From Candidatus Saccharimonadota bacterium (GTDB lineage: Archaea; Nanobdellota; Nanobdellia; Pacearchaeales; GW2011-AR1): a stretch of 32,000 nt of DNA. Numbering within the stretch: the stretch's first letter is position 1; each line of letters begins with the position of its first letter. Positions 3,932 through 32,000 of this stretch are shown in pieces. The DNA lies in NCBI GenBank assembly GCA_017609205.1, contig JAFCEL010000001.1:60001-92000 (forward strand), in the 5' to 3' direction. A model generated the notes under the pieces. The model was not told the origin of the DNA, searched no databases, and saw only the letters and a list, made by a program, of their open reading frames with translations. Both the position numbers and the translations under genes were made by a program.

Positions 3932-3958
3932 AGAAGAAAGAGTAGTTAATAAATTTTC

Positions 3959-4285
3959 TCAAAACCGGTTTATGTCTGCTTTTCTTTCTAATAATTCAAC
4001 TCGTTGCTGAAGACGATAAATCTGATTTGAAAGATCCTCGAGCCTATTTGTTATGTCCATTAATCTTTTTGCAAGTCTTCTCCTTCTTTCATCACTACTC
4101 TCTGAAACATCAGAAGAGTCTTTTTGAGAAGAGGCAGTATTTGCAATAGCACTGAAAAAACCAAATCCACTAGTATTTTTCTCAGATGGTGAATTCTCAA
4201 CTTCTATTTCCTGTTCTTTTCTTGGAGTTGGATATCTCTCTGTTAAGTCAAGTATATCGCTCTTCTTTCTCCTGAAAATCCCCAT
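3959..4285 (-). CDS. small coiled-coil protein (109 aa from MGIFRRKK)
   Basis: The internal ATG at 4285 is preferred because the longer ORF (to 4378) would overlap the divergent gene start at 4361. Layout: N-terminal amphipathic basic segment, Ser/Asp-rich linker, C-terminal heptad-like helix (RLEDLSNQIYRLQQRVELLERK). Confidence 0.5.
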   Translation of the reverse strand: MGIFRRKKSDILDLTERYPTPRKEQEIEVENSPSEKNTSGFGFFSAIANTASSQKDSSDVSESSDERRRRLAKRLMDITNRLEDLSNQIYRLQQRVELLERKADINRF

Positions 4286-4360: not shown

Positions 4361-5830
4361 ATGGCAACTGTCTCCCAAATCATTGCAACGATTAATCCTG
4401 ATTTGTATTATGCCGCATCAGGCGATGAAGAAGAGGCTGCTAAAAATCTAAAAGAGTTCAAGAAATTAATAGAAAAAAAAGGGTTTCAAGCAGCTTCTGA
4501 AAAAGCAAAACCAAAGCCTTATTCAGAAAATATAATAAAATATGATTCTGCAGTCGATCAATTAGAACCCCTGTATTTCTGGATAATTGATTTTATCAAC
4601 GATAGATTAGGTCTTGAAATTGAAAAACTTGCAGATAATTTTGTGTCATCTCCTGGTTCAGGACATTTTTCAGAATTAGGGGGAAAAGCAACTGCAATGC
4701 AACAACAAGGAACAAAAATTCTTGCAGATATTAATACTGTTCTCAGAAGTGTCTTGAATTTAATCTATGATTTGAAAGAATTCAGAATGCGCTTGGCTCA
4801 TTATGATGGATTGAAATCAGAGGATAAAGCAACACAAAATGCCTCACGCCTTGCATTAAAACAAATATGGATGGACAAAGTTGATATGCAGAAAGGCATG
4901 GGATCTATAAATGCTCTTACGACTGGGCAGCTGGGATTTCAAACATTAAGAGATGCTTTTCTTGCAGTAAATGAAGAAAAAGACGTCGATAAGTTAGACT
5001 TAAATGAAAGAGTTAAAAGAATTCTAAAACCAAGAATCCATGATTTTAATATATGGGTTAAAGAATCTGAAAAAGAATTGAGAAAAAGATACGAACTAGA
5101 GAGAAATTATCTTAAAAGCCAAGTTAATAGTTTGAAACTTTATTCTAGATGGGCAAAACCATATCTTAAGGCAGCGTCACAATTAGAACAAAAAGAGCCA
5201 GGAAGAAATCCCTCTTTTGTAAAGATATTTAATACAATTTTATTAGAACTAACAATTCTTGCTAAAAAACCTGTAACACCTCCGGAAGAGCGTGGGATGG
5301 ATAAAAAAAGAAAACTAAAGAGAAAATATTACAAATGCGTTTTGGTTGATTTTAATTTCCGAGGAATTCCCAGAAAAATTGGAGGGCAGGGACATTACTC
5401 TTTTGGGGGAAGAACAGAAATAAGATTTCAATCATATGCTCTTAACGAGGATGAATTAAAAAAATTAGATAAAGAATTGGAAAAAAATGATGTGGGGGAT
5501 GTGCTGAAGCTAATAGAGGGAATAACCGACGAAAGTTTAAGGAAAATACAAGAAGAGATTGATTTCTTTCTCGAAGAACAAGAAAAAGAAGAGAAAGAGA
5601 AGAAAAAACCAAAAGACACTTCAAACCCTTTCTTAGCTTTATTTGGTTTTTACAATAAGAAGGATGAAAAGAAAAAAGAAAGCACAAAAAAAACAGAAGA
5701 TAAAATAAGACCTGATGATTGGTTTGAAGCAAACCAGGTCAGAAAATATGCATTAGAAGAAGCAAAAGAGACTGCATTTAAGATATTTGATGTATATAAG
5801 AAAGTCCATAATATGGCAAGCTATACATAA
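4361..5830 (+). CDS. conserved-looking hypothetical protein, largely alpha-helical with a Lys/Glu-rich C-terminal insert
   Basis: 489-aa ORF with TTTTAAATAT box about 20-29 nt before the ATG (leaderless-like). No catalytic or nucleotide-binding motif recognised. Confidence 0.7.
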   Translation: MATVSQIIATINPDLYYAASGDEEEAAKNLKEFKKLIEKKGFQAASEKAKPKPYSENIIKYDSAVDQLEPLYFWIIDFINDRLGLEIEKLADNFVSSPGSGHFSELGGKATAMQQQGTKILADINTVLRSVLNLIYDLKEFRMRLAHYDGLKSEDKATQNASRLALKQIWMDKVDMQKGMGSINALTTGQLGFQTLRDAFLAVNEEKDVDKLDLNERVKRILKPRIHDFNIWVKESEKELRKRYELERNYLKSQVNSLKLYSRWAKPYLKAASQLEQKEPGRNPSFVKIFNTILLELTILAKKPVTPPEERGMDKKRKLKRKYYKCVLVDFNFRGIPRKIGGQGHYSFGGRTEIRFQSYALNEDELKKLDKELEKNDVGDVLKLIEGITDESLRKIQEEIDFFLEEQEKEEKEKKKPKDTSNPFLALFGFYNKKDEKKKESTKKTEDKIRPDDWFEANQVRKYALEEAKETAFKIFDVYKKVHNMASYT

Positions 5831-21417: not shown

Positions 21418-21530
21418 ATCTTGCAGTATAAATAAAAATAGAGAAACTGATATAAAAAACTATCTCAAAATCTCTGATTTTGACTAAATGTGCGAAGCAC
21501 TAAGGCGACTCATTTATTTTTACAGAACAA

Positions 21531-22750: not shown

Positions 22751-23584
22751 TTATTTTGTTCTTCTTTTTCGATAGATTATAATTCCTGCAATAGTGCTAA
22801 TACCTAATATAAATATTATAATTAATATGCTTCCTGTTGTTCCTAAAGTACCAATAACTGCACCAGTAATTCCTGAAAAGAAACCTTGTGGAGGCTCTTC
22901 CTCTTCTCCTTCTTTAAAAGACAGAGCCTCAAAACAATCTGCAGGACAATTTTCAGGTGTTTCTCCTATACTGGCATCACATACACCATCTCCACAAGAA
23001 CTCAGATTTGCCCAGCTTTTATTGTATATTGTGACTCCGCTCCCCCCTCCTCCTTTTGAATATCCGCCTGCAGAATTTATTGTAAAGGTTGGTTTGTCCT
23101 TGGATTCAAAAACATTATTTCCAATAAAGGCCTCTAACCATGACTTATAATCTCCAACAACATAATTAGTTGTATCAAGAGTGATATTATATTCAAAATG
23201 CAATTCTTTTCCTCCAAAGCCGTAGCCATATCCGTAGCCGTATCAATATCCAAAATTATATCCATATCCATAAGCACTATCGTAGCCATATCCGTAGCCG
23301 TATCCATAATGATTATTTGAGGGTATGCTAATCGGGACTATAGTTATATCATCACAGCCAGAGATAGGATTTCCCTTAATATCAAATACACAAGAAGCAG
23401 AAGCAGGGCCTTTAATGACTAAGGTTAAATTCTTTACAGGGAGGTATTTATCCATTGATTGAATATCAAGAGCAGCAGTAAATGTAATCACCTCTCCTTT
23501 TACTGGAGAATTATTATCAATTGTCAGGCCTAATATAAAAGCCTTTACAGGACCAGCAAAGATAACGAATAAGATAACACAAGT
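22751..23584 (-). pseudogene. Gly-Tyr-repeat cell-surface protein gene interrupted by one in-frame TGA and lacking a canonical start for its signal peptide
   Basis: Track ORFs 23243-23491 and 22751-23203 are in the same frame, separated only by TGA (23243-23245): ..GYNFGY*YGYGYGYGFGGKELHFEY... The frame stays open upstream to 23584 and encodes a signal-like CVILFVIFAGPVKAFILG with no ATG/GTG/TTG. The C-terminus has CGDGVCD..ETPENCPADC, a TM anchor and RKRRTK. Confidence 0.6.
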
Positions 23585-24753: not shown

Positions 24754-24830
24754 TTCTGAGGCACGAGCTGAGACCTAAAGATTTCCTAATGAATTTTTTC
24801 TAAAAAAGAAGATGGGGGGTTCCGTTAAAT
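24754..24830. repeat. GC-rich intergenic repeat, short copy A
   Basis: gaggcacgagctg (24758-24770) is identical to 31828-31840. ttttttctaaaaaagaagatggggggttcc (24794-24823) matches 28936-28972 and 31941-31979. Confidence 0.7.
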
Positions 24831-24858
24831 TTATTAAATTACTTTTGCTTAAATTCTT

Positions 24859-25326
24859 ATGGGGGAAATGTTTGATGCATTAAAAGAAATAGTAACTGGA
24901 AAAGAAGTTAAAGAAGAACAAAAAACAAAAAAAGATATTGAAGGTTGGCTTGCCTTTTTTGTTTTTGGATTATATATATCCATACTAGTTATTTTATATT
25001 ATACTCTTATAATAGAATTATTGTTTTTCAAATTGTTATTTTTGATATATCTCTCTTGTTTAATTTATACCATAGTATTAATGCATAAAAGGAAAAAAAA
25101 TTTTAAAAAATTTGCAATCTTAACTTTGTGGTTTTGGGCGGGAATAATTGTAATTGAAACCGTATACTTTATATCTGTTTTAACTAAAGAACAATTTTTA
25201 GAGTGGGCAAAAATAATGTTTTATGATGGGGCCGGTTCATTATTCATTACTATAATCCTTGGAGTGTTATGGACAAATTATTTATTAAAATCTAAAAGGG
25301 TAAAAGATACTTTCACAAAAAATTAA
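24859..25326 (+). CDS. multi-TM hypothetical membrane protein
   Basis: 155-aa ORF with 4 hydrophobic helices. No family recognised. Confidence 0.5.
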   Translation: MGEMFDALKEIVTGKEVKEEQKTKKDIEGWLAFFVFGLYISILVILYYTLIIELLFFKLLFLIYLSCLIYTIVLMHKRKKNFKKFAILTLWFWAGIIVIETVYFISVLTKEQFLEWAKIMFYDGAGSLFITIILGVLWTNYLLKSKRVKDTFTKN

Positions 25327-25327
25327 A

Positions 25328-25669
25328 ATGGATTACAAAATTATTTTAGTTTATTTATTAATCGGAATTGTTCTAATATCCTGCTTTTTCATAGTAGTGT
25401 TATTAGGTGCATTAGTTCTAAAAATTTTCAAAAAAGACCCAAAGGATAGTTATGATTATCTCAAAAACATAACTTATGGTGCTTTCGGAGGGCTTATCGC
25501 AGCAATTTTTTTAGAAGCTCGCGGAGAAACTTCAACAAGTATATTTTACTGGATTCCAAAAATTCTTTCAACATTGATTTTAATTTTAATATTTGTATTA
25601 CTTGGATTTGCTTATTTGTTTTTACTGAAATTTGTCCATAAAAAAATAATCCTAAAAGATAAAAAGTAA
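25328..25669 (+). CDS. multi-TM hypothetical membrane protein
   Basis: 113-aa ORF starting 1 nt after the previous stop, with 3 hydrophobic helices. Confidence 0.5.
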   Translation: MDYKIILVYLLIGIVLISCFFIVVLLGALVLKIFKKDPKDSYDYLKNITYGAFGGLIAAIFLEARGETSTSIFYWIPKILSTLILILIFVLLGFAYLFLLKFVHKKIILKDKK

Positions 25670-25752
25670 TTCTCGGCGAAGCCGAACTATTTATCAGAAG
25701 GATTAGGAATCCCCTATTTTTCTATTTTATTTTTTAAAAAATCTCATTAAAA

Positions 25753-26304
25753 TCACAACCTACAAAACTCTTCAATCATCTCTTTATTTCTGACTTCTGG
25801 ATGAAAAAGTACGCCATAAATCTGTTTTGATTTGTGTCTCACTGCTTGAGGAATTTTTCCGTCGGCAAATGATGTAAAAATCTCAAAATCTTTTAATTGA
25901 CAAAAATCAATATAATAATTATGCAAATGATAAACTTGTTTTTTTCCTTTTAATCCTAAAAATTCTTTTTTGAAATTTTCTTCATAAAATCCTATTTCTT
26001 GTTTTTTCTTTAATTTTCCTTTAAAGAGCAATCCAATAATTTGCATTCCTCCACAAACTCCTAATAAAGGTTTATCAGAATTTTTTATCCATTCAAATTC
26101 TTTTAAATTCTCTACAAAATCATTATCTTTTAATGATGTTCCACAGATTATTATTTTATTTGCTTTTAATAAATCTCTTTTGTTAATTTTTTTATAATGT
26201 TTGGTAAAATATTCAATTCCATCTTTTTTTAAGATGTCTTCAATAGGTTTTACAAATTCATAATAATGCAATTTTTCTTTGCAGATGTTTATTATTAGTA
26301 TCAT
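25753..26304 (-). CDS. class I glutamine amidotransferase (GuaA-N-like, stand-alone)
   Basis: Nucleophile elbow LLGVCGGMQIIG and His-Glu pair in GVLFHPE. The ATG overlaps the stop of the upstream PP-loop gene (26301-26304). Confidence 0.8.
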   Translation of the reverse strand: MILIINICKEKLHYYEFVKPIEDILKKDGIEYFTKHYKKINKRDLLKANKIIICGTSLKDNDFVENLKEFEWIKNSDKPLLGVCGGMQIIGLLFKGKLKKKQEIGFYEENFKKEFLGLKGKKQVYHLHNYYIDFCQLKDFEIFTSFADGKIPQAVRHKSKQIYGVLFHPEVRNKEMIEEFCRL

Positions 26305-26969
26305 TTTATTTCAACTTCCATACTCCAAGAATTTCCTTTTCCTATTATCTTTTTATTTTTAATTTCTAATTTTTTATTGAATAAGGGACAATCAAGAACA
26401 AAAGTTTCAAATTCTCCTCCTTCTCCTGCTGGATGTATCAGGAACTTTTTATTTAATTCTTTAATATCTTCTACAAATCGTTTGTTGATTTTTCTTCCAA
26501 GCCATGATTCATCAAAAGGATAAGCAAAAACACCTGTGATTATTACCTTAAATTTATTTTTTATTAACTCATTAAGATATTCTAATTCATCTTTTTGCCA
26601 TAATGGATTAAAACACTCTAAACCAAGTTTATTGCAAATTTTTTGAATTCTCGTCGATTGATATACACTTTCTATGGCTCCACTAACCACACCTCTGATT
26701 CTGTATTTTTGCTTTGCTTTTTTTATTGCTTTTTCTAAATCTTTTAATTCTTCTTCTTTTTTTCCTTTTGTTTTTTGAATGATTAATGGAATCCCCATAG
26801 CATCTGCTTGTTTTTTTGTCTTTTTTATAGAAGGTGTATGAAACATATAACTCTCTTCATTTGCAGAGAATACAGAAATCAAACAAGATATTTCATAACG
26901 TTTTTGTTTTGCTAAATAAGTTGCATAACAGGAATCTTTTCCTCCTGAAAAGAGAACTGCGAGTTTCAT
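26301..26969 (-). CDS. Dph6/MJ0570-family PP-loop ATPase (diphthine-ammonia ligase-like)
   Basis: N-terminal LFSGGKDS PP-loop, SGAIESVYQSTRI and C-terminal AGEGGEFETFVLDCPLF, characteristic of the DUF71/Dph6 family. Confidence 0.8.
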   Translation of the reverse strand: MKLAVLFSGGKDSCYATYLAKQKRYEISCLISVFSANEESYMFHTPSIKKTKKQADAMGIPLIIQKTKGKKEEELKDLEKAIKKAKQKYRIRGVVSGAIESVYQSTRIQKICNKLGLECFNPLWQKDELEYLNELIKNKFKVIITGVFAYPFDESWLGRKINKRFVEDIKELNKKFLIHPAGEGGEFETFVLDCPLFNKKLEIKNKKIIGKGNSWSMEVEIK

Positions 26970-27011
26970 AGATAAAAAAACAAAAGAGGTTTTTAAGATA
27001 TTTGCTATTTT

Positions 27012-27590
27012 TTAAGCAACCCTCTCTAATTGGTTTCTGATTTGCTTAGACCATTCTATGAGTAATTTTTTCATAGAGGTTCTGTAAAGATAATTATATT
27101 CTGGTTTGGACATTCGTCTTTCTTCTATTTTGATTTGTAATTGAGCGACATGGTCATGTATAATTCCAGCAATATCCCAAAAGGGATCTGAATAGTCTGG
27201 ATCATGAAATCTTGCTGCTTTGCTAATCTTTCTATAAACTGAATCTAAACTTCTTGTTCCATCAACAGGACAAACTTCTGAATTTCTCTCATTACTATTG
27301 TAAATTCGGAGCTCAGTATCAGACATAGAATTTAATCTCTCTAGATTATTGAAAATTATTTTTCCTAATCGTATATTTCTCTCTGATTTTTGAACTGATT
27401 CAATCTGCTTGTCGAGATAATCTCTAATTCTTCCCATAACTGATAATAAAAAGAGTATTATTAAAAATATTGGTAATTTAGTATATAAGTAATCCAAAAA
27501 TTTAATATAACATATTGCGACTGCTGTTATACGCTCCTGACAGGGACGAAGATTGCAAAGCAATCCAAAAAGTTGGCGAAGGGACGCCAT
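27012..27590 (-). CDS. hypothetical protein (start uncertain)
   Basis: The first ~30 codons of the 192-aa track ORF lie in a GC-rich repeat island (27505-27592) and may not be coding. Alternatives: TTG 27497 gives an N-terminal TM anchor (LPIFLIILFLLSV), ATG 27437 gives MGRIRDYL... No family recognised. Confidence 0.5.
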   Translation of the reverse strand: MASLRQLFGLLCNLRPCQERITAVAICYIKFLDYLYTKLPIFLIILFLLSVMGRIRDYLDKQIESVQKSERNIRLGKIIFNNLERLNSMSDTELRIYNSNERNSEVCPVDGTRSLDSVYRKISKAARFHDPDYSDPFWDIAGIIHDHVAQLQIKIEERRMSKPEYNYLYRTSMKKLLIEWSKQIRNQLERVA

Positions 27591-27592
27591 GC

Positions 27593-27973
27593 TTATTTTC
27601 TTTTACGTTTGGAATACCAGTTGATAAAAATTATCCAATACATGAACAGCAATGCGACAATACTAATCCAGTATGGTTTTTCAAAAACTGGTTTTGGTAG
27701 TGTATTGAGATATGCTATTACACTTATTGTTACTATTACTGAGAGCATAGCAACAACAATTTTTCGCAGTTTGTCTTTTTCCATTTTTGTTACCTCATTT
27801 GTTTTACTTTGATATAATTTGTATGCAGCCAATACGGCAAGGAAAACAATAGCCAATCCTGCAGAAATTTTTGGGTCAAGCATTGCTGAAAGCAACACGA
27901 AGAAAACTGCTAAGATGGCAATTATACCTTCTGTTTTATTACTCATACTCATTTTATATTTATAATCTTTCAT
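27593..27973 (-). CDS. four-TM hypothetical membrane protein
   Basis: 126-aa ORF overlapping the upstream methyltransferase gene by 14 nt. Basic C-terminus SKRKRK. Confidence 0.55.
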   Translation of the reverse strand: MKDYKYKMSMSNKTEGIIAILAVFFVLLSAMLDPKISAGLAIVFLAVLAAYKLYQSKTNEVTKMEKDKLRKIVVAMLSVIVTISVIAYLNTLPKPVFEKPYWISIVALLFMYWIIFINWYSKRKRK

Positions 27974-28547
27974 TTTTCACTGCATAAATTGTCAAATGTT
28001 GTTCTGGTAAAAAATTGAATTCCTTTTCCAACAAATAACCTGCCTCTCCCATTTCTTGAATGATAGTTTCCTTAGGAATATAGTGTCCAAATAATCCACG
28101 GAAAGTGAAAATTTTACCTTTTTTATACTCAATGATAGCAATTCTCCCATCAGGTTTTAAAAATCGTTTTAGTTTCTTAAAATACTCTACTCGATTTGGT
28201 ATGTGATGGGTGACATTACGCATGAATATCAAATCTAAGCTTTTTTCAGGTAAATCTAATTTATCTCGTGATACAAGCGTTGGTATAACATTATTCAATC
28301 CTTTTTCTTTGGCATTGTTTTTAAGATACTCTAAAAATTCTGGCTTTGTATCAATAGCATAAACTCTTCCTCCTTCCCCCACCATTTCGGCAAATCGCAG
28401 TGAAAAATAACCCCCTCCTGAACCAATATCTGCAATACTTTGACTAGGTTTTAATGCAATAGCTTCTATAATCTGGTCTGGCTTGTTTTTAGGGTCAGAA
28501 GCTTTTTTATTGAATATCTTAGCTTGAAAGTTTGCCATTTTCCTCAT
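27960..28547 (-). CDS. class I SAM-dependent methyltransferase
   Basis: Motif I IADIGSGGGYFSLRFA, followed by VYAIDT and DLIFMRNVTHH. Confidence 0.8.
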   Translation of the reverse strand: MRKMANFQAKIFNKKASDPKNKPDQIIEAIALKPSQSIADIGSGGGYFSLRFAEMVGEGGRVYAIDTKPEFLEYLKNNAKEKGLNNVIPTLVSRDKLDLPEKSLDLIFMRNVTHHIPNRVEYFKKLKRFLKPDGRIAIIEYKKGKIFTFRGLFGHYIPKETIIQEMGEAGYLLEKEFNFLPEQHLTIYAVKNERL

Positions 28548-28991
28548 TTCATAAATTAATTATTGTTTCTTTTAATATTTTTTTGTTTCAGGCATCCCGA
28601 AGCCGATTGCATAACATCGGGCTTAAAAGACCTGAGCATTGCGAAGGCTCGAAGTGATAAATTTTTTCCTCGAATTTGACCTTTGGAATGTAGCAAAGCG
28701 AAATGACGAGCGGAAAATTCAGAGCTGAAAAAATTTTGAACATTCGAGAGTTTTTCCGTAGGGAAAATTTGGGAAAACTCTGACTTTTCCAAAAGATAAC
28801 AAAGGAGTTTTCTTGTTAAAAGCTGTTCGCCGACCGACAAAGTCGGCACGAACTGACGCTACAGCGTCCTCGTGAATCACCGATGAGTGGATGGTGGGTT
28901 GTTTGTCTAAAACCCAATGTATTTGAGAAATCGCCTTTTTTGCTTCTTTTTTTAAAAAGAAGATGGGGTTCCACTTTTTTGATTTTTCAAA
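28548..28991. repeat. GC-rich intergenic repeat island, copy B
   Basis: Shares ordered blocks with copy D: gagcggaa, tcgagagtt, aatttgggaaaa, gctgtt, ggcacgaRctg-hairpin-cctcgtga, ggatggt and the T-rich end ttttttgcttc..taaaaagaagatgggg. Contains hairpins at 28752-28767, 28829-28847 and 28847-28874. Confidence 0.75.
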
Positions 28992-29239
28992 TTAATCCTT
29001 TCTTAGATATTCTAAACCTTTTTCAGTTATTTTTATCTGGAAATATGGTTTGCCACTTTTAGGATGTTTTTCTTTACTTTCTATTTTAAGAAAACCATAA
29101 GATTCTAATTCTTTACAATTAGACCTTATAGTATTAAAACCAGTATTAACTTTTCTCTCAAGTTGAGCCAATGTCATAGGCGAAGATTTTATTAAACCTA
29201 AAATCTTCTTTTTATATCAAATGAGCTACGCTTGGACAT
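28992..29239 (-). pseudogene. winged-helix DNA-binding protein, frameshifted at an A5 run
   Basis: The track ORF 28992-29177 starts inside helix 1. In-frame upstream codons give YKKKILGLIKSSP, preceded by TGA. A second frame starts at ATG 29239 (MSKRSSFDIKRRF*). One extra A in the run (T5 on plus strand, 29209-29213) fuses them into an 82-aa wHTH. Confidence 0.6.
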
Positions 29240-29297
29240 ACTACAATAAAAGAGTAAGTCTTAAATATCCCAACTCATAATATTATAGTAAGCTAAA

Positions 29298-30434
29298 ATG
29301 TCTCAAAAAGAAAATAAAAAATCAAGAAAGAAATTATGGTTGTGGATACTATCAATTATATTTATTGTTGGAGGAATGAGCACTTTATCAGATTCTTTTT
29401 TTGCAGGAGTCTTTGCATTTGTGGCGGGTGCAATAATTTGTCCTCCAATTATTAATATTATTAAAGAAAAATCAGAGGGTAAAGCAAAAACTTGGATATT
29501 TGTAACTGCTTTTATTGTCTTAGTGTCTTTTAGTGGAATGGCTCTTCCAAATTCAGAGAATTTTCAAAAGGATATATCCTTGCCCTCAACAATAAACATT
29601 ATCTCGGATGTTAACCTAACAATACCTGAAAATACAAAAGAAGCAATCTCTAAAACAGAAGTTTATAGATACTGGAGTAATAATATAAATGATGGACAAA
29701 AAAAATTAACTCTTCTTCATTATAATAAAGAAAGATATGGAAAATTTCTGGAATATTTAGACTCACAAAATCTTAAAGAAGATTTTAAAAGATTGTGTGG
29801 TAACGAATTAGTGCCTAAAGACATGCTTGTTTCTAATGAAAGGGGTCTCTTTCTCCATATTGGATTAGATGATGGATTTGCTGTATGTGACTTTGTTTCT
29901 GAAGAAATAACTTCTGAATTTGAAAATCAAGAAAATACAACTCAAAAACAAGCCCAACAAAAATGTATCCCTAATTGGAAATGCGGAAAATGGACAATCT
30001 GTTCTAACGAAGTTCAAACAAGAATATGCACAGATAAGAATGATTGTGGAACCATTGAAGAAAAACCTATTGAAACCCAAAATTGTAAAGATTATGATTT
30101 AGAGATGAGTATAGACGAACTATTAAATGAGTTTAGCGGATTAACAAAACTTCAGCAAGAAGAAAAAATTAAAGAATTAAAAGGTAAAAGAATAAAAACA
30201 TCAACAACGGCTTATAAAATAGACAAAGCCTCACTTTCTACACAATATGTAGTTATGGATGATGATTATCTCTATCCATCTGTAAAAGCTTTCTTTCCTG
30301 CTGAAGAAAAAGATAAACTTCTAAAAGTAAATATTGGGGATAAGATAACATTCATCGGCGAGTTTGTTACATATAAACAAGGAACATATGTGCCTAGTTA
30401 TGTTGAATTTACAAAGTCAAAATTGGTAGGTTAG
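29298..30434 (+). CDS. membrane-anchored hypothetical protein with a thrombospondin-type-1-like Cys/Trp motif
   Basis: N-terminal TM helices (LWLWILSIIFIVGG, FAGVFAFVAGAIICPPII, WIFVTAFIVLVSF). Motif CIPNWKCGKWTICSNEVQTRICTDKNDCG. Confidence 0.6.
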   Translation: MSQKENKKSRKKLWLWILSIIFIVGGMSTLSDSFFAGVFAFVAGAIICPPIINIIKEKSEGKAKTWIFVTAFIVLVSFSGMALPNSENFQKDISLPSTINIISDVNLTIPENTKEAISKTEVYRYWSNNINDGQKKLTLLHYNKERYGKFLEYLDSQNLKEDFKRLCGNELVPKDMLVSNERGLFLHIGLDDGFAVCDFVSEEITSEFENQENTTQKQAQQKCIPNWKCGKWTICSNEVQTRICTDKNDCGTIEEKPIETQNCKDYDLEMSIDELLNEFSGLTKLQQEEKIKELKGKRIKTSTTAYKIDKASLSTQYVVMDDDYLYPSVKAFFPAEEKDKLLKVNIGDKITFIGEFVTYKQGTYVPSYVEFTKSKLVG

Positions 30435-30441
30435 ATATTAA

Positions 30442-30795
30442 ATGAAATTTGGTATTTCTGAAGAAGATGAGTTAAATATCCTAAAGGATTGGAGAGATAA
30501 TTATTCTTATTCAAAAGTCCCTAAAAATCTTCAGAAAAAAGTTAAAGACCAACAGGCAGTAAATTTGTTAATGGAATTTACCAAAGATTCAGAGATTGAT
30601 TATCAAAGAATTAGTAATAGGATAAAAGAACTTGAAGATAAAATTCAAAAAGAAAATCAAAAAGAAAAAGAGCAGAGTTTTTGGTATATTCTCAAAAAAG
30701 AATTTAAAGAAAAAGCTGCAAAGGCGATTGTTTGGGTTGTTATGAGTATTATTGGATTTATTCTAGGATTTTTAGTTAGTTATTTCTTGAAATAA
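30442..30795 (+). CDS. tail-anchored coiled-coil hypothetical protein
   Basis: 117-aa ORF 7 nt after the previous gene. K/E-rich helix and C-terminal TM (AIVWVVMSIIGFILGFLVSYFL). Confidence 0.5.
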   Translation: MKFGISEEDELNILKDWRDNYSYSKVPKNLQKKVKDQQAVNLLMEFTKDSEIDYQRISNRIKELEDKIQKENQKEKEQSFWYILKKEFKEKAAKAIVWVVMSIIGFILGFLVSYFLK

Positions 30796-31140
30796 TGGAA
30801 CCCCCAAAAAGTAATATCCGAAAAATTTGCGTGAGCTTTGTGAACCTCTTAACCTTTATTATACGAAATTTTAATTTCGTGAGTTTCTCCTAGGTCGGTT
30901 AAGAGAAGTAAATCCGAAGGATTTATTTCCCGAACTTTTCCTCGTGAGTGAAGAATGAACGAACAGGGCTGAAAAGTGAGGGCGTAGCGAACTGCAAGTG
31001 AGCAGAGTTTTAATCGCTGTTAGTAGAGTTTTTTCGCAGAAAAAACCGAGCCAGAATGCAATGTCCCGAAGGGCTGGCGAAGAGTAAAAATCAATTTTCA
31101 GGGAGGAATTTATTATCTTGCGTTCGCGATAAATTAATAA
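30796..31140. repeat. GC-rich intergenic repeat island, copy C (rearranged)
   Basis: Starts with ggaaccccc (30797-30805), the reverse complement of the gggggttcc end motif of copy A. Contains cctcgtgag and gctgtt blocks in the opposite order to B/D. Many G(N)A-loop mini-hairpins. Confidence 0.65.
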
Positions 31141-31162
31141 GTAAGATTTTCATATTAAAATT

Positions 31163-31615
31163 ATGCAATTAAGAAAAGCAACAGAACAGGACAAAAAAGA
31201 GGCAATAAAAATTGCACAAGATTTGAAAGAATGGTTTAATAAAGAAGGAATTAGAAATATGAAAACCGACTTCAAATTTAACAATTTGGTCGTGATGAGA
31301 AATAAAGGCAAAGTTTCTGGATTTTTATGCTACACAACTAATTGCGGAAAAATGCAACTTATATGGATGGGTGTTGAAAAAGATATGCAACAAAAAGGAA
31401 TTGGAAAAAAACTTCTGAGATGGCTAGAAAAAGAAGCTAAAAAATATAAGTTGCATTCAATTGAAGTTGAAACTTTGCCTGATGAAGATGATTACGAACC
31501 ATACAAAAAAACTCGAGCTTTTTATTATAAAAATGGTTTCAAAAGAATATTATATAAAAAAGCGAGAGTTAAAGGGTGGGATGACCAAATTGTTCTGGAG
31601 AAAAGAATAAAGTAA
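31163..31615 (+). CDS. GNAT-family N-acetyltransferase
   Basis: Acetyl-CoA motif A: VEKDMQQKGIGKKLLRWLEKEAKK. C-terminal YYKNGF. 150 aa. Confidence 0.85.
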   Translation: MQLRKATEQDKKEAIKIAQDLKEWFNKEGIRNMKTDFKFNNLVVMRNKGKVSGFLCYTTNCGKMQLIWMGVEKDMQQKGIGKKLLRWLEKEAKKYKLHSIEVETLPDEDDYEPYKKTRAFYYKNGFKRILYKKARVKGWDDQIVLEKRIK

Positions 31616-32000
31616 GCGAGCTTTATCTTGGGTGGGCAAGAAAATTGATTTTTATTTCTACTAACATATGCGATTAAGCGACCCGTAGGGCTCGAGCGGA
31701 ACGGAGTGACCTCGAGAGTTCAAAATCTTTGATTTTGAATTTGGGAAAATTATGGCTTTTAAGAAAAAAGTGAGCGAATGCTAAAATAATTTTCCGCTTA
31801 ATCTGCTGTTGCTTGACCGAACGAAGTGAGGCACGAGCTGGGCTAAAAAAAGCCCCTCGTGAGTTTTAATTTTTCTTTTCAGGTTGGGGGAGGAGGATGG
31901 TTTCTCCGACGACAAAAAAATTAGAGAGATTGCCCGCTCGTTTTTTGCTTCTTCTTTTCTAAAAAAGAAATTTGGGCACTTTATCTTTGTTTTAGATACT
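31616..32000. repeat. GC-rich intergenic repeat island, copy D (runs to window edge)
   Basis: See copy B. Hairpin CACGAG-ct-GGGCT-a6-AGCCC-CTCGTG at 31832-31861. End motif ttttttgcttcttcttttctaaaaaagaaatttgggcac at 31941-31979. Confidence 0.75.

Follow-up and report, generated by a model that had tools for sequence, protein, structure and literature searches.

Structured intergenic islands as candidate recombination sites of an integron-like cassette system in DPANN archaea and candidate phyla radiation bacteria

A family of hairpin-bearing intergenic islands separates the accessory genes in a 32,000-nucleotide stretch of contig JAFCEL010000001.1 (hereafter the window). We consider it probable, at roughly 70%, that these islands are copies of a conserved structured element serving as the recombination site of an integron-like cassette system. 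The initial annotation, made from the letters of the window, had suggested either a selected structure, with a recombination site among the options, or cassette boundaries. Strong covariation confirmed that the structure is selected. The recombination-site and cassette-boundary readings were supported by co-oriented arrays, by a tyrosine recombinase at the array end in 17 related loci, and by near-identical cassettes that occur in different contexts with junctions at a TAAC box. Because the element forms one-directional arrays beside an integrase-like enzyme in many archaea and bacteria of very small size, the islands most likely mark the boundaries of mobile cassettes. In the window, the array extends from the gene for histidyl-tRNA synthetase (HisRS) past the last position and divides the accessory genes into cassettes.

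To define the family, one genome per species was scanned with the pattern GCGGAACGRAG-N(7-37)-AATTTGGGAAA, built from island D of the window and from H, a further copy just past the window end. The scan gave 33 loci (numbered with the prefix L), 30 of which carry the whole element; by our estimate few of the 33 were expected by chance, and three look like chance matches. A second scan, of metagenomes with a long-form pattern, added 32 further loci, and 37 matches of a tail-hairpin pattern in viral contigs were taken as chance from the expected number without inspection. For the 30 whole elements of the genome scan, the archaeal hosts were Woese-, Pace-, Nano- and Iainarchaeota, all of the DPANN group, and the bacterial hosts, all of the candidate phyla radiation (CPR), were Shapiro-, Falkow-, Vogel-, Uhr- and Woesebacteria, Saccharibacteria and Paceibacterota. 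The two blocks of the genome pattern are common to D and H; island B retains the second only and misses the combined pattern because GCGGAAAATTC replaces the first block.

The element combines paired R-boxes (TAAC ... GTTA) with a short, asymmetric spacer and a stem of 11 bp (P1), which encloses a three-way junction whose junction and loop bases hardly vary; a hairpin-rich tail follows. The short form, 83-98 nt long, reads (AATTG/ATTTC)nnn-TAAC-RTY-[P1, 11 nt]-AAGTT[P2]-loop-[P2]ATTT in its 5' part and continues with -GGG[P3]-loop-[P3]CC-[P1']-T-GTTAWR. The long form, represented by islands B and D, carries extra hairpins within P1, and its core measures 120-155 nt. In L067 (about 1355-1473) and in L104, which has the same sequence, an insertion sequence (IS) with a DUF772-type transposase lies inside an element and cuts it just ahead of the 3' R-box (…TGTTTAAGCCCT|CAGCCTGTCTC…).

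The tail is 70-250 nt long and modular, with GNA-triloop and other hairpins. In the D subfamily, the hairpin described by the initial annotation is joined by a GGGYGGG block and a terminal hairpin rich in AT. The tails of island C, L079, L092 and L099 are of another type and end in a TATA-like box that lies about 22 nt ahead of a start codon. Such promoter-type tails, together with other tails that end in an AT-rich hairpin flanked by T-runs, would be expected if the islands were intergenic expression modules, each a terminator plus a promoter, duplicated with their neighbouring genes. This explanation leaves the three-way junction, the R-boxes, the identity across domains, the recombinase linkage and the TAAC junctions unaccounted for, and we give it a very slim chance as the whole account. 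It is compatible with the cassette model and subordinate to it, each cassette bringing its own signals.

Covariation was assessed in 17 seed sequences and in 62 distinct covariance-model hits. In the seeds, 93.7% of cells were paired, compared with 36-49% when partners were slid, and double changes were found in 18 of the 34 pairs (8/11 in P1 and 6/9 in P3). The 62 hits, whose alignment was model-fitted, showed 90.8% of cells paired and compensation in 31 of the 34 pairs. The folding z-score was -7.5 for the element of L043 and -5.6 for the core of island D, the latter as DNA on either strand. The tail hairpin showed the same behavior. The initial annotation had claimed that B and D form one hairpin with different inner stems, and both indeed fold as claimed with fully compensated inner stems, B at 28847-28874 on the plus strand as CACGA-ACTG-GACGC-taca-GCGTC-C-TCGTG and D at 31832-31861 on the plus strand as CACGAG-CTG-GGCT-a7-AGCC-C-CTCGTG. 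Relatives added three further inner-stem forms, so that five are now seen (GGGCT/AGCCC, GACGC/GCGTC, GAAAC/GTTTC, GAAAT/GTTTC and GAGCC/GGCTC), while the outer CACGAG/CTCGTG is kept. These results demonstrate that the structure is under selection. In addition, paired cells contained 105 G-T and 39 A-C combinations, and this excess of G-T favors folding of the strand called "bottom" in the integron convention.

The copies are arranged in strictly one-directional arrays. In 29 loci with at least two copies, all 79 copies were co-oriented within their locus; 13 of these loci came from genomes (41 copies) and 16 from metagenomes (about 38 copies). Spacing was typically 0.6-1.4 kb, with up to six sites in 8 kb, and the arrays included five copies in L048, six in L052 and four each in L072, L053 and L081. 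Many dispersed copies with hairpins, some decayed or truncated and one interrupted by an IS, are also what would be seen if the islands were non-autonomous mobile elements, such as miniature inverted-repeat transposable elements (MITEs) or elements of the repetitive extragenic palindromic (REP) or palindrome-associated transposable element (PATE) kind, moved by a transposase acting in trans. The chance of 79/79 co-oriented copies is about 2^-50 under such dispersal. Moreover, the island ends are unrelated to each other and lack terminal inverted repeats, no target-site duplications were seen, and the stems covary rather than keep a fixed terminal repeat for transposase binding. The linked enzyme is a tyrosine recombinase, and neither a Y1 nor a DDE transposase recurred among the neighboring open reading frames (ORFs). 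We therefore regard mobile elements of this kind as very improbable, and the REP/MITE-like and Y1-transposase options of the initial annotation found no support.

A search for tyrosine recombinases, which had also been suggested at the outset, located a XerA/IntI-like enzyme at the array end in the related loci. The enzyme, of about 270 aa, is encoded downstream of the element on the same strand and at the same end of the array in 12 genome and 5 metagenome loci. It contains a Phage_integrase domain and a SAM-like N-terminal domain, and it scored near the cut-off of NF040815 (NCBIfam XerA_Arch), exceeding it in five of six tested enzymes, bacterial hosts included. Its closest solved relative was the integron integrase VchIntIA (2A3V), which was matched in two stretches, with XerA a close second. 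The recombinase start is preceded, at a distance of roughly 70-130 nt, by an attI-like site (AATTGnnnATAAC|..TTATTAT) in 11 of 12 loci, all of them relatives. This site is dif-like, with imperfect inverted arms around a short center, e.g., ACATATAA-CTGGT-TTATATCC. One gene usually stands between the last element and the attI-like site, and in the CPR loci the first cassette points away from the recombinase in 8 of 11 cases. Read on the opposite strand, this arrangement is the canonical integron layout.

Natural junctions between contexts were found at the R-box. The loci L043 and L057, from different CPR genomes, have in common a 1.2-kb segment of 96% identity that consists of the element and a gene for a 298-aa protein, and their recombinases are only 54% identical. 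The segment is flanked by (C)ATATAAC on both sides; on the left it ends at ...TAAC, and on the right at ...ACATATAAC|T, with the recombinase gene about 65 nt further on. Likewise, L092 and L099 are 99.9% identical rightwards from TAAC|ATCGGG and unrelated leftwards. Both junctions thus fall at TAAC, within 1-2 nt, which suggests that exchange takes place at the R-box (on the opposite strand, at G|TT) and that these junctions arose by recombination there. A further group of copies has a chimeric P1, in which the 5' and 3' halves belong to different subtypes (H at 34695-34788, L040 at 1672-1769 and L071 at 365-451). The chimeric halves imply exchange within the invariant core and not at the R-box, and these copies are best explained by homologous recombination within that core.

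The same results bear on the possibility that the element is primarily a structured RNA, whether noncoding, cis-acting or antisense, that travels with accessory genes and is only secondarily linked to the recombinase. A near-invariant three-way junction with covarying helices is a signature of functional RNA, and a conserved G-U wobble and an excess of G-U on one strand were seen as well. In addition, the core is far more conserved than the neighboring recombinase, which is 30-66% identical between loci. Against this, no Rfam family was matched by the elements of the window, H or the relatives at gathering or E-value thresholds. The junctions between contexts lie exactly at the R-box, and two further features are those of a recombination site: the copies are strictly co-oriented, and they hold a fixed place with respect to a recombinase accompanied by an attI-like site. 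Furthermore, the promoter-like TATA boxes that can be made out stand downstream of the core, which is thus no 5' leader, and core-deleted or chimeric copies persist in the array. A primarily RNA element is considered unlikely, and an RNA function may coexist with a role in recombination.

For the preferred reading, a recombination site of cassettes, the following mechanism can be proposed. The element would fold as a single strand, the bottom strand in the integron convention, and would then present the R-box/L-box duplex to a tyrosine recombinase related to XerA and IntI. Within the R-box, strands would be exchanged at AA|C, which corresponds to G|TT on the complementary strand. Cassettes could be inserted at the attI-like site beside the recombinase gene or excised between neighboring sites. 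The invariant junction is a candidate substitute for the missing IntI domain in recognition, and the tail is a candidate for cassette-borne promoters and terminators.

Next, we examined the array of the window. The window was joined to the contig L001 of the Joint Genome Institute (JGI), which is identical in the overlap, giving a 41.6-kb sequence; window coordinates are used throughout (window position = L001 position + 25760). L001 extends the window into genes for S27e, S24e, Spt4, Rpb7 and the thermosome. The order is HisRS, island A, two genes, island E, three genes, island F, two genes, island B, three genes, island C, a GNAT gene, island D, four genes, H, a NUDIX gene and core genes. 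All elements are on the plus strand, and covariance-model matches within the window were confined to the accessory region. F, B, C, D and H are co-oriented and lie 0.8-3 kb apart, in keeping with the definition of an integron-type array as at least two co-oriented attC-type sites separated by less than about 4 kb.

Island D (31658-31988) is the sole intact copy and has the long form. It comprises the left arm and R-box CTACTAAC at 31658-31665, a multi-branched core at 31662-31810, the tail hairpin, a G-rich block at 31882-31900, a terminal hairpin at 31949-31969 and the semi-conserved ATTTGGGCACTTT at 31970-31982. It matched the family profile with nhmmer E=3e-31 and the covariance model with E=0.002, and over 300 nt it shares 78% identity with L047, a locus of Woesearchaeota. 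The island had originally been drawn to 32000; its actual end is 31980, where a convergent gene stops. Island B (28590-28975) is a degenerate long-form (D-type) element whose P1 halves no longer pair. Its R-box ATAAC is at 28611-28615, its core match at 28734-28830, its terminal hairpin at 28943-28962 and ATGGGGTTCCAC at 28963-28974. B matched the family profile with nhmmer E=4e-22 and the covariance model with E=0.009. The homology of B (28548-28991) and D (31616-31980), part of the initial annotation, was borne out by local alignment against dinucleotide shuffles (z=6.4) and by nhmmer (E=7e-10 and 7e-13), and the ordered blocks that had been listed for the pair are visible in the alignment. 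In L002, a contig of a second sample that is 99.5% identical, 20 nt of the B tail are missing (28920-28939), and a 221-aa gene has a 45-nt in-frame deletion at about 32055-32099 (L001 6295-6339).

Island C (30890-31140) is also a degenerate element. It retains a 5' P1-like GGTTAAGAGAAGT at 30897-30909, the 3' P1 and R-box GTTTTAATCGCTGTTAGT at 31007-31024, tail hairpins, and the promoter-type tail end GCGATAAATTAATAA at 31126-31140, about 22 nt ahead of the GNAT start codon. The inverted motif with which C had been said to begin, GGAACCCCC, is present at 30797-30805. All islands had been described as related to one another; C showed no significant similarity to B or D within the window, and its membership comes from motifs and from the tail end, which matches the elements of L092 and L099. 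Island F (27499-27592) is likewise a family member, as had been thought, in the form of a core-deleted site (AATTTAATATAAC-ATATTGCGA|CTGCTGTTATACG at 27499-27533, with short tail hairpins after it). The N-terminal part of a 192-aa ORF, as called, overlaps the island. The 50 overlapping codons gave no Pfam match, and a start at about 27440 is more likely.

Islands A and E are remnants at most. Island A (24754-24825), directly after the HisRS stop codon, is a tail remnant without a core, with the 5' half of the tail hairpin, TGAGGCACGAGCTG, at 24757-24770 and the terminal AT hairpin plus ATGGGGGGTTCC at 24794-24823. In nhmmer, it matched D and B only weakly (E 0.08-0.35), and the covariance model gave no match. 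The exact match that had been reported between A and D was found, as a 14-mer (TGAGGCACGAGCTG at 24757 and 31827) instead of a 13-mer, and the terminal motif common to A, B and D reads TTTT(C/T)TAAAAAGAAG. Island E (25670-25752) is a possible remnant of low confidence, with a GCGAAGC-type minihairpin at 25673-25685 and AGGATTAGG/AATCCCCT at 25699-25715, which resemble P1 halves joined directly; neither nhmmer nor the covariance model gave a significant match. H was located at 34695-34855. An inverted pair of 28-nt tail ends, 14 nt of which are exact, AAGAAATTTGGGCACTTTATCTTT / AAAGATAAAGTGCCTAAATAAATTTCTT, brackets the four-gene block at 31981-34438. The pair lies at 31963-31988 (the D end) and at 34482-34509 (L001 8722-8749, left of H); it resembles a reversed tail-end module and could be a remnant of an inversion. 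Inverted end motifs (GGGGTTCC / GGAACCCC) bracketing every gene group were considered and rejected, since these are short matches only, and the copy of this motif in E is probably part of a collapsed P1 hairpin.

The islands had been called GC-rich in an AT-rich window. This held for F, B, C and D (0.44, 0.38, 0.38 and 0.41) and not for A (0.31); E, at 0.29, was not enriched either. The GC content was 0.32 for the contig, 0.25-0.33 for genes adjoining the islands and up to 0.40-0.44 for core genes elsewhere in the window. Hairpin density in the islands was enriched about threefold, a modest effect confounded by GC. The islands resemble coding DNA in GC content, and the minus strand of B is stop-free for 97 codons, as decayed coding sequence might be. 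A Pfam search that allowed E up to 1 gave no match, each of the six frames of C and D contains stops, indels in the B/D alignment are not multiples of three, and the variation consists of compensatory base pairs. Pseudogenes, which the initial annotation had set against its own reading, thus have next to no chance of explaining the islands. An extension of the B/D alignment into the neighboring genes was apparent only, with no protein homology. ARAGORN found nothing in the islands, which argues against a tRNA-derived origin.

The GNAT gene between C and D (31163-31615) has homologues of 60-70% aa identity in CPR bacteria (Magasanikbacteria and Patescibacteria) and in DPANN archaea, and this distribution suggests that the gene may have been transferred across domains. 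In L111, a stretch of about 22 nt (AAAAGGAATAAAAAGCTGGAAGT) is repeated directly on either side of a GNAT homologue 84% identical to that of the window (at about 3950-4000 and about 4470-4520), a possible sign that another mechanism of insertion was at work.

Several results weigh against the islands being integron-like recombination sites. The linked recombinase lacks the IntI-specific insertion: TIGR02249 matched it in two stretches that skip profile positions of about 179-236, below the cut-off. No recombinase is encoded in the 41.6-kb sequence. In this array, D alone folds like the consensus, H is chimeric (z=+0.9), and B, C and F are degenerate. The orientation of cassette genes is mixed, and several cassettes in DPANN loci and in the window do not point away from the recombinase. 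The G-T bias comes largely from one conserved wobble pair, and in the seven contexts examined, GNAT homologues adjoin no element. Finally, the near-invariant junction and loop and the long tail go beyond a simple attC role and could reflect an RNA or protein-binding function. Because no recombinase lies within reach and most sites are decayed, the array of the window is taken to be sedentary and decaying, comparable to a cluster of attC sites without an integrase (CALIN).

Other features were noted elsewhere in the window. At 436-584 on the plus strand, a tRNA gene carries an intron of about 77 nt (Rfam tRNA model, 49.8 bits over 149 nt); ARAGORN left the gene uncalled, and its presence agrees with an archaeal origin. 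Beside tRNA-Trp (21465-21510), there are two hairpins, TCAAAATCtctGATTTTGA and GTGCgaaGCAC, the first of which is closely like the inner hairpin of D (TTCAAAATCtttGATTTTGAA). At 23221-23308 on the minus strand, short tandem repeats of CGTAGCCATATCCGTAGCCGTATC inside an ORF imply a repetitive, low-complexity protein stretch.

A broader proposal is put forward tentatively: CPR bacteria and DPANN archaea may share a distinct, as yet undescribed integron-like capture system, with an IntI/XerA-related recombinase without the IntI domain, a large three-way-junction site in which the junction perhaps replaces recognition by extrahelical bases, a tail of expression signals, and a direct route of exchange across domains. 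Since the site core is almost identical in the two domains, such a route could connect these ultra-small episymbionts. If the sites work, integron-type capture would not depend on the IntI-specific domain and would be widespread in two groups whose accessory genomes and exchange routes are poorly understood, and the likeness of the cores would make cassette exchange between domains directly testable. The conserved junction would then be a defined biochemical target for asking whether extrahelical-base recognition has been replaced. For annotation, the element gives the boundaries of cassettes and a reason for the long "empty" intergenic regions of these compact genomes.

Integrons and CALINs have been described in archaea before, Nanoarchaeota among them, and CALINs were reported in the metagenome-assembled genome (MAG) from which L056 comes (PMC9668308); the kind of system is therefore not new. 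Ghaly et al. (2022) treated the additional domain of IntI as defining and found it in their archaeal IntIs (PMC9668308). The older archaeal contigs DUKY01, RFJB01, JAGVZH, JAGVWY and JAFCEU, which bear arrays, are absent from the text of their supplement that was searched; it lists a different contig of the L056 MAG. In the literature searched, we found no description of Xer-type cassette arrays in CPR or DPANN, which is not proof of absence.

The arrays resemble integrons and CALINs in being co-oriented series of folded imperfect palindromes with small accessory genes between them, and in the R-box triplets AAC/GTT with a junction at AA|C (G|TT). These triplets hardly varied, with AU and CG pairs in 50-53 of the 62 model hits, and the fit to the 7-mers RYYYAAC / GTTRRRY was loose (ATATAAC and CACTAAC; GTTATAC and GTTAAGC). 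In relatives, the recombinase lies at the array end and is transcribed away from it, with an attI-like site ahead. Cassettes are common to unrelated genomes and domains, and integrase-less arrays are frequent, as in integrons. In contrast, the linked recombinase has no IntI-specific domain, and the variable terminal structure of attC is replaced by a sequence-conserved three-way junction. Canonical attC sites have an unpaired spacer of 1 nt, whereas the spacer here is 3 nt with extra bases on the opposite arm. The conserved tail of 70-250 nt belongs to the element, and the long-form core reaches or exceeds the usual length of attC (about 57-141 nt).

Other repeated elements share fewer of these traits. 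REP elements and bacterial interspersed mosaic elements, MITEs and IS200/IS605-derived hairpins are likewise short, repeated, hairpin-rich intergenic DNA; the element differs from all of them in its strict co-orientation, covarying stems, tyrosine-recombinase linkage and lack of terminal inverted repeats and target-site duplications. Among systems based on Xer and dif, including integrative mobile elements exploiting Xer (IMEX) and plasmid dif (pdif) modules, the likeness lies in the XerA-like enzyme (NF040815) and in the attI-like site, which resembles the dif core. The dif site is a single double-stranded 28-bp site per replicon, and the pdif modules of Acinetobacter plasmids have flanking sites in inverse orientation, whereas many directly oriented sites with a large folded insert are found here. 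A dif site was thus ruled out by the many sites per locus, and pdif-type modules by the direct, not inverted, orientation. The Vibrio cholerae repeats (VCRs) are homogeneous attC sites of sedentary chromosomal integrons of Vibrio, and their homogeneity is limited to that one genus. As with VCRs, one site family of high identity runs along a long array of mostly unknown small genes; in contrast to VCRs, the core of the element recurs across CPR bacteria and DPANN archaea.

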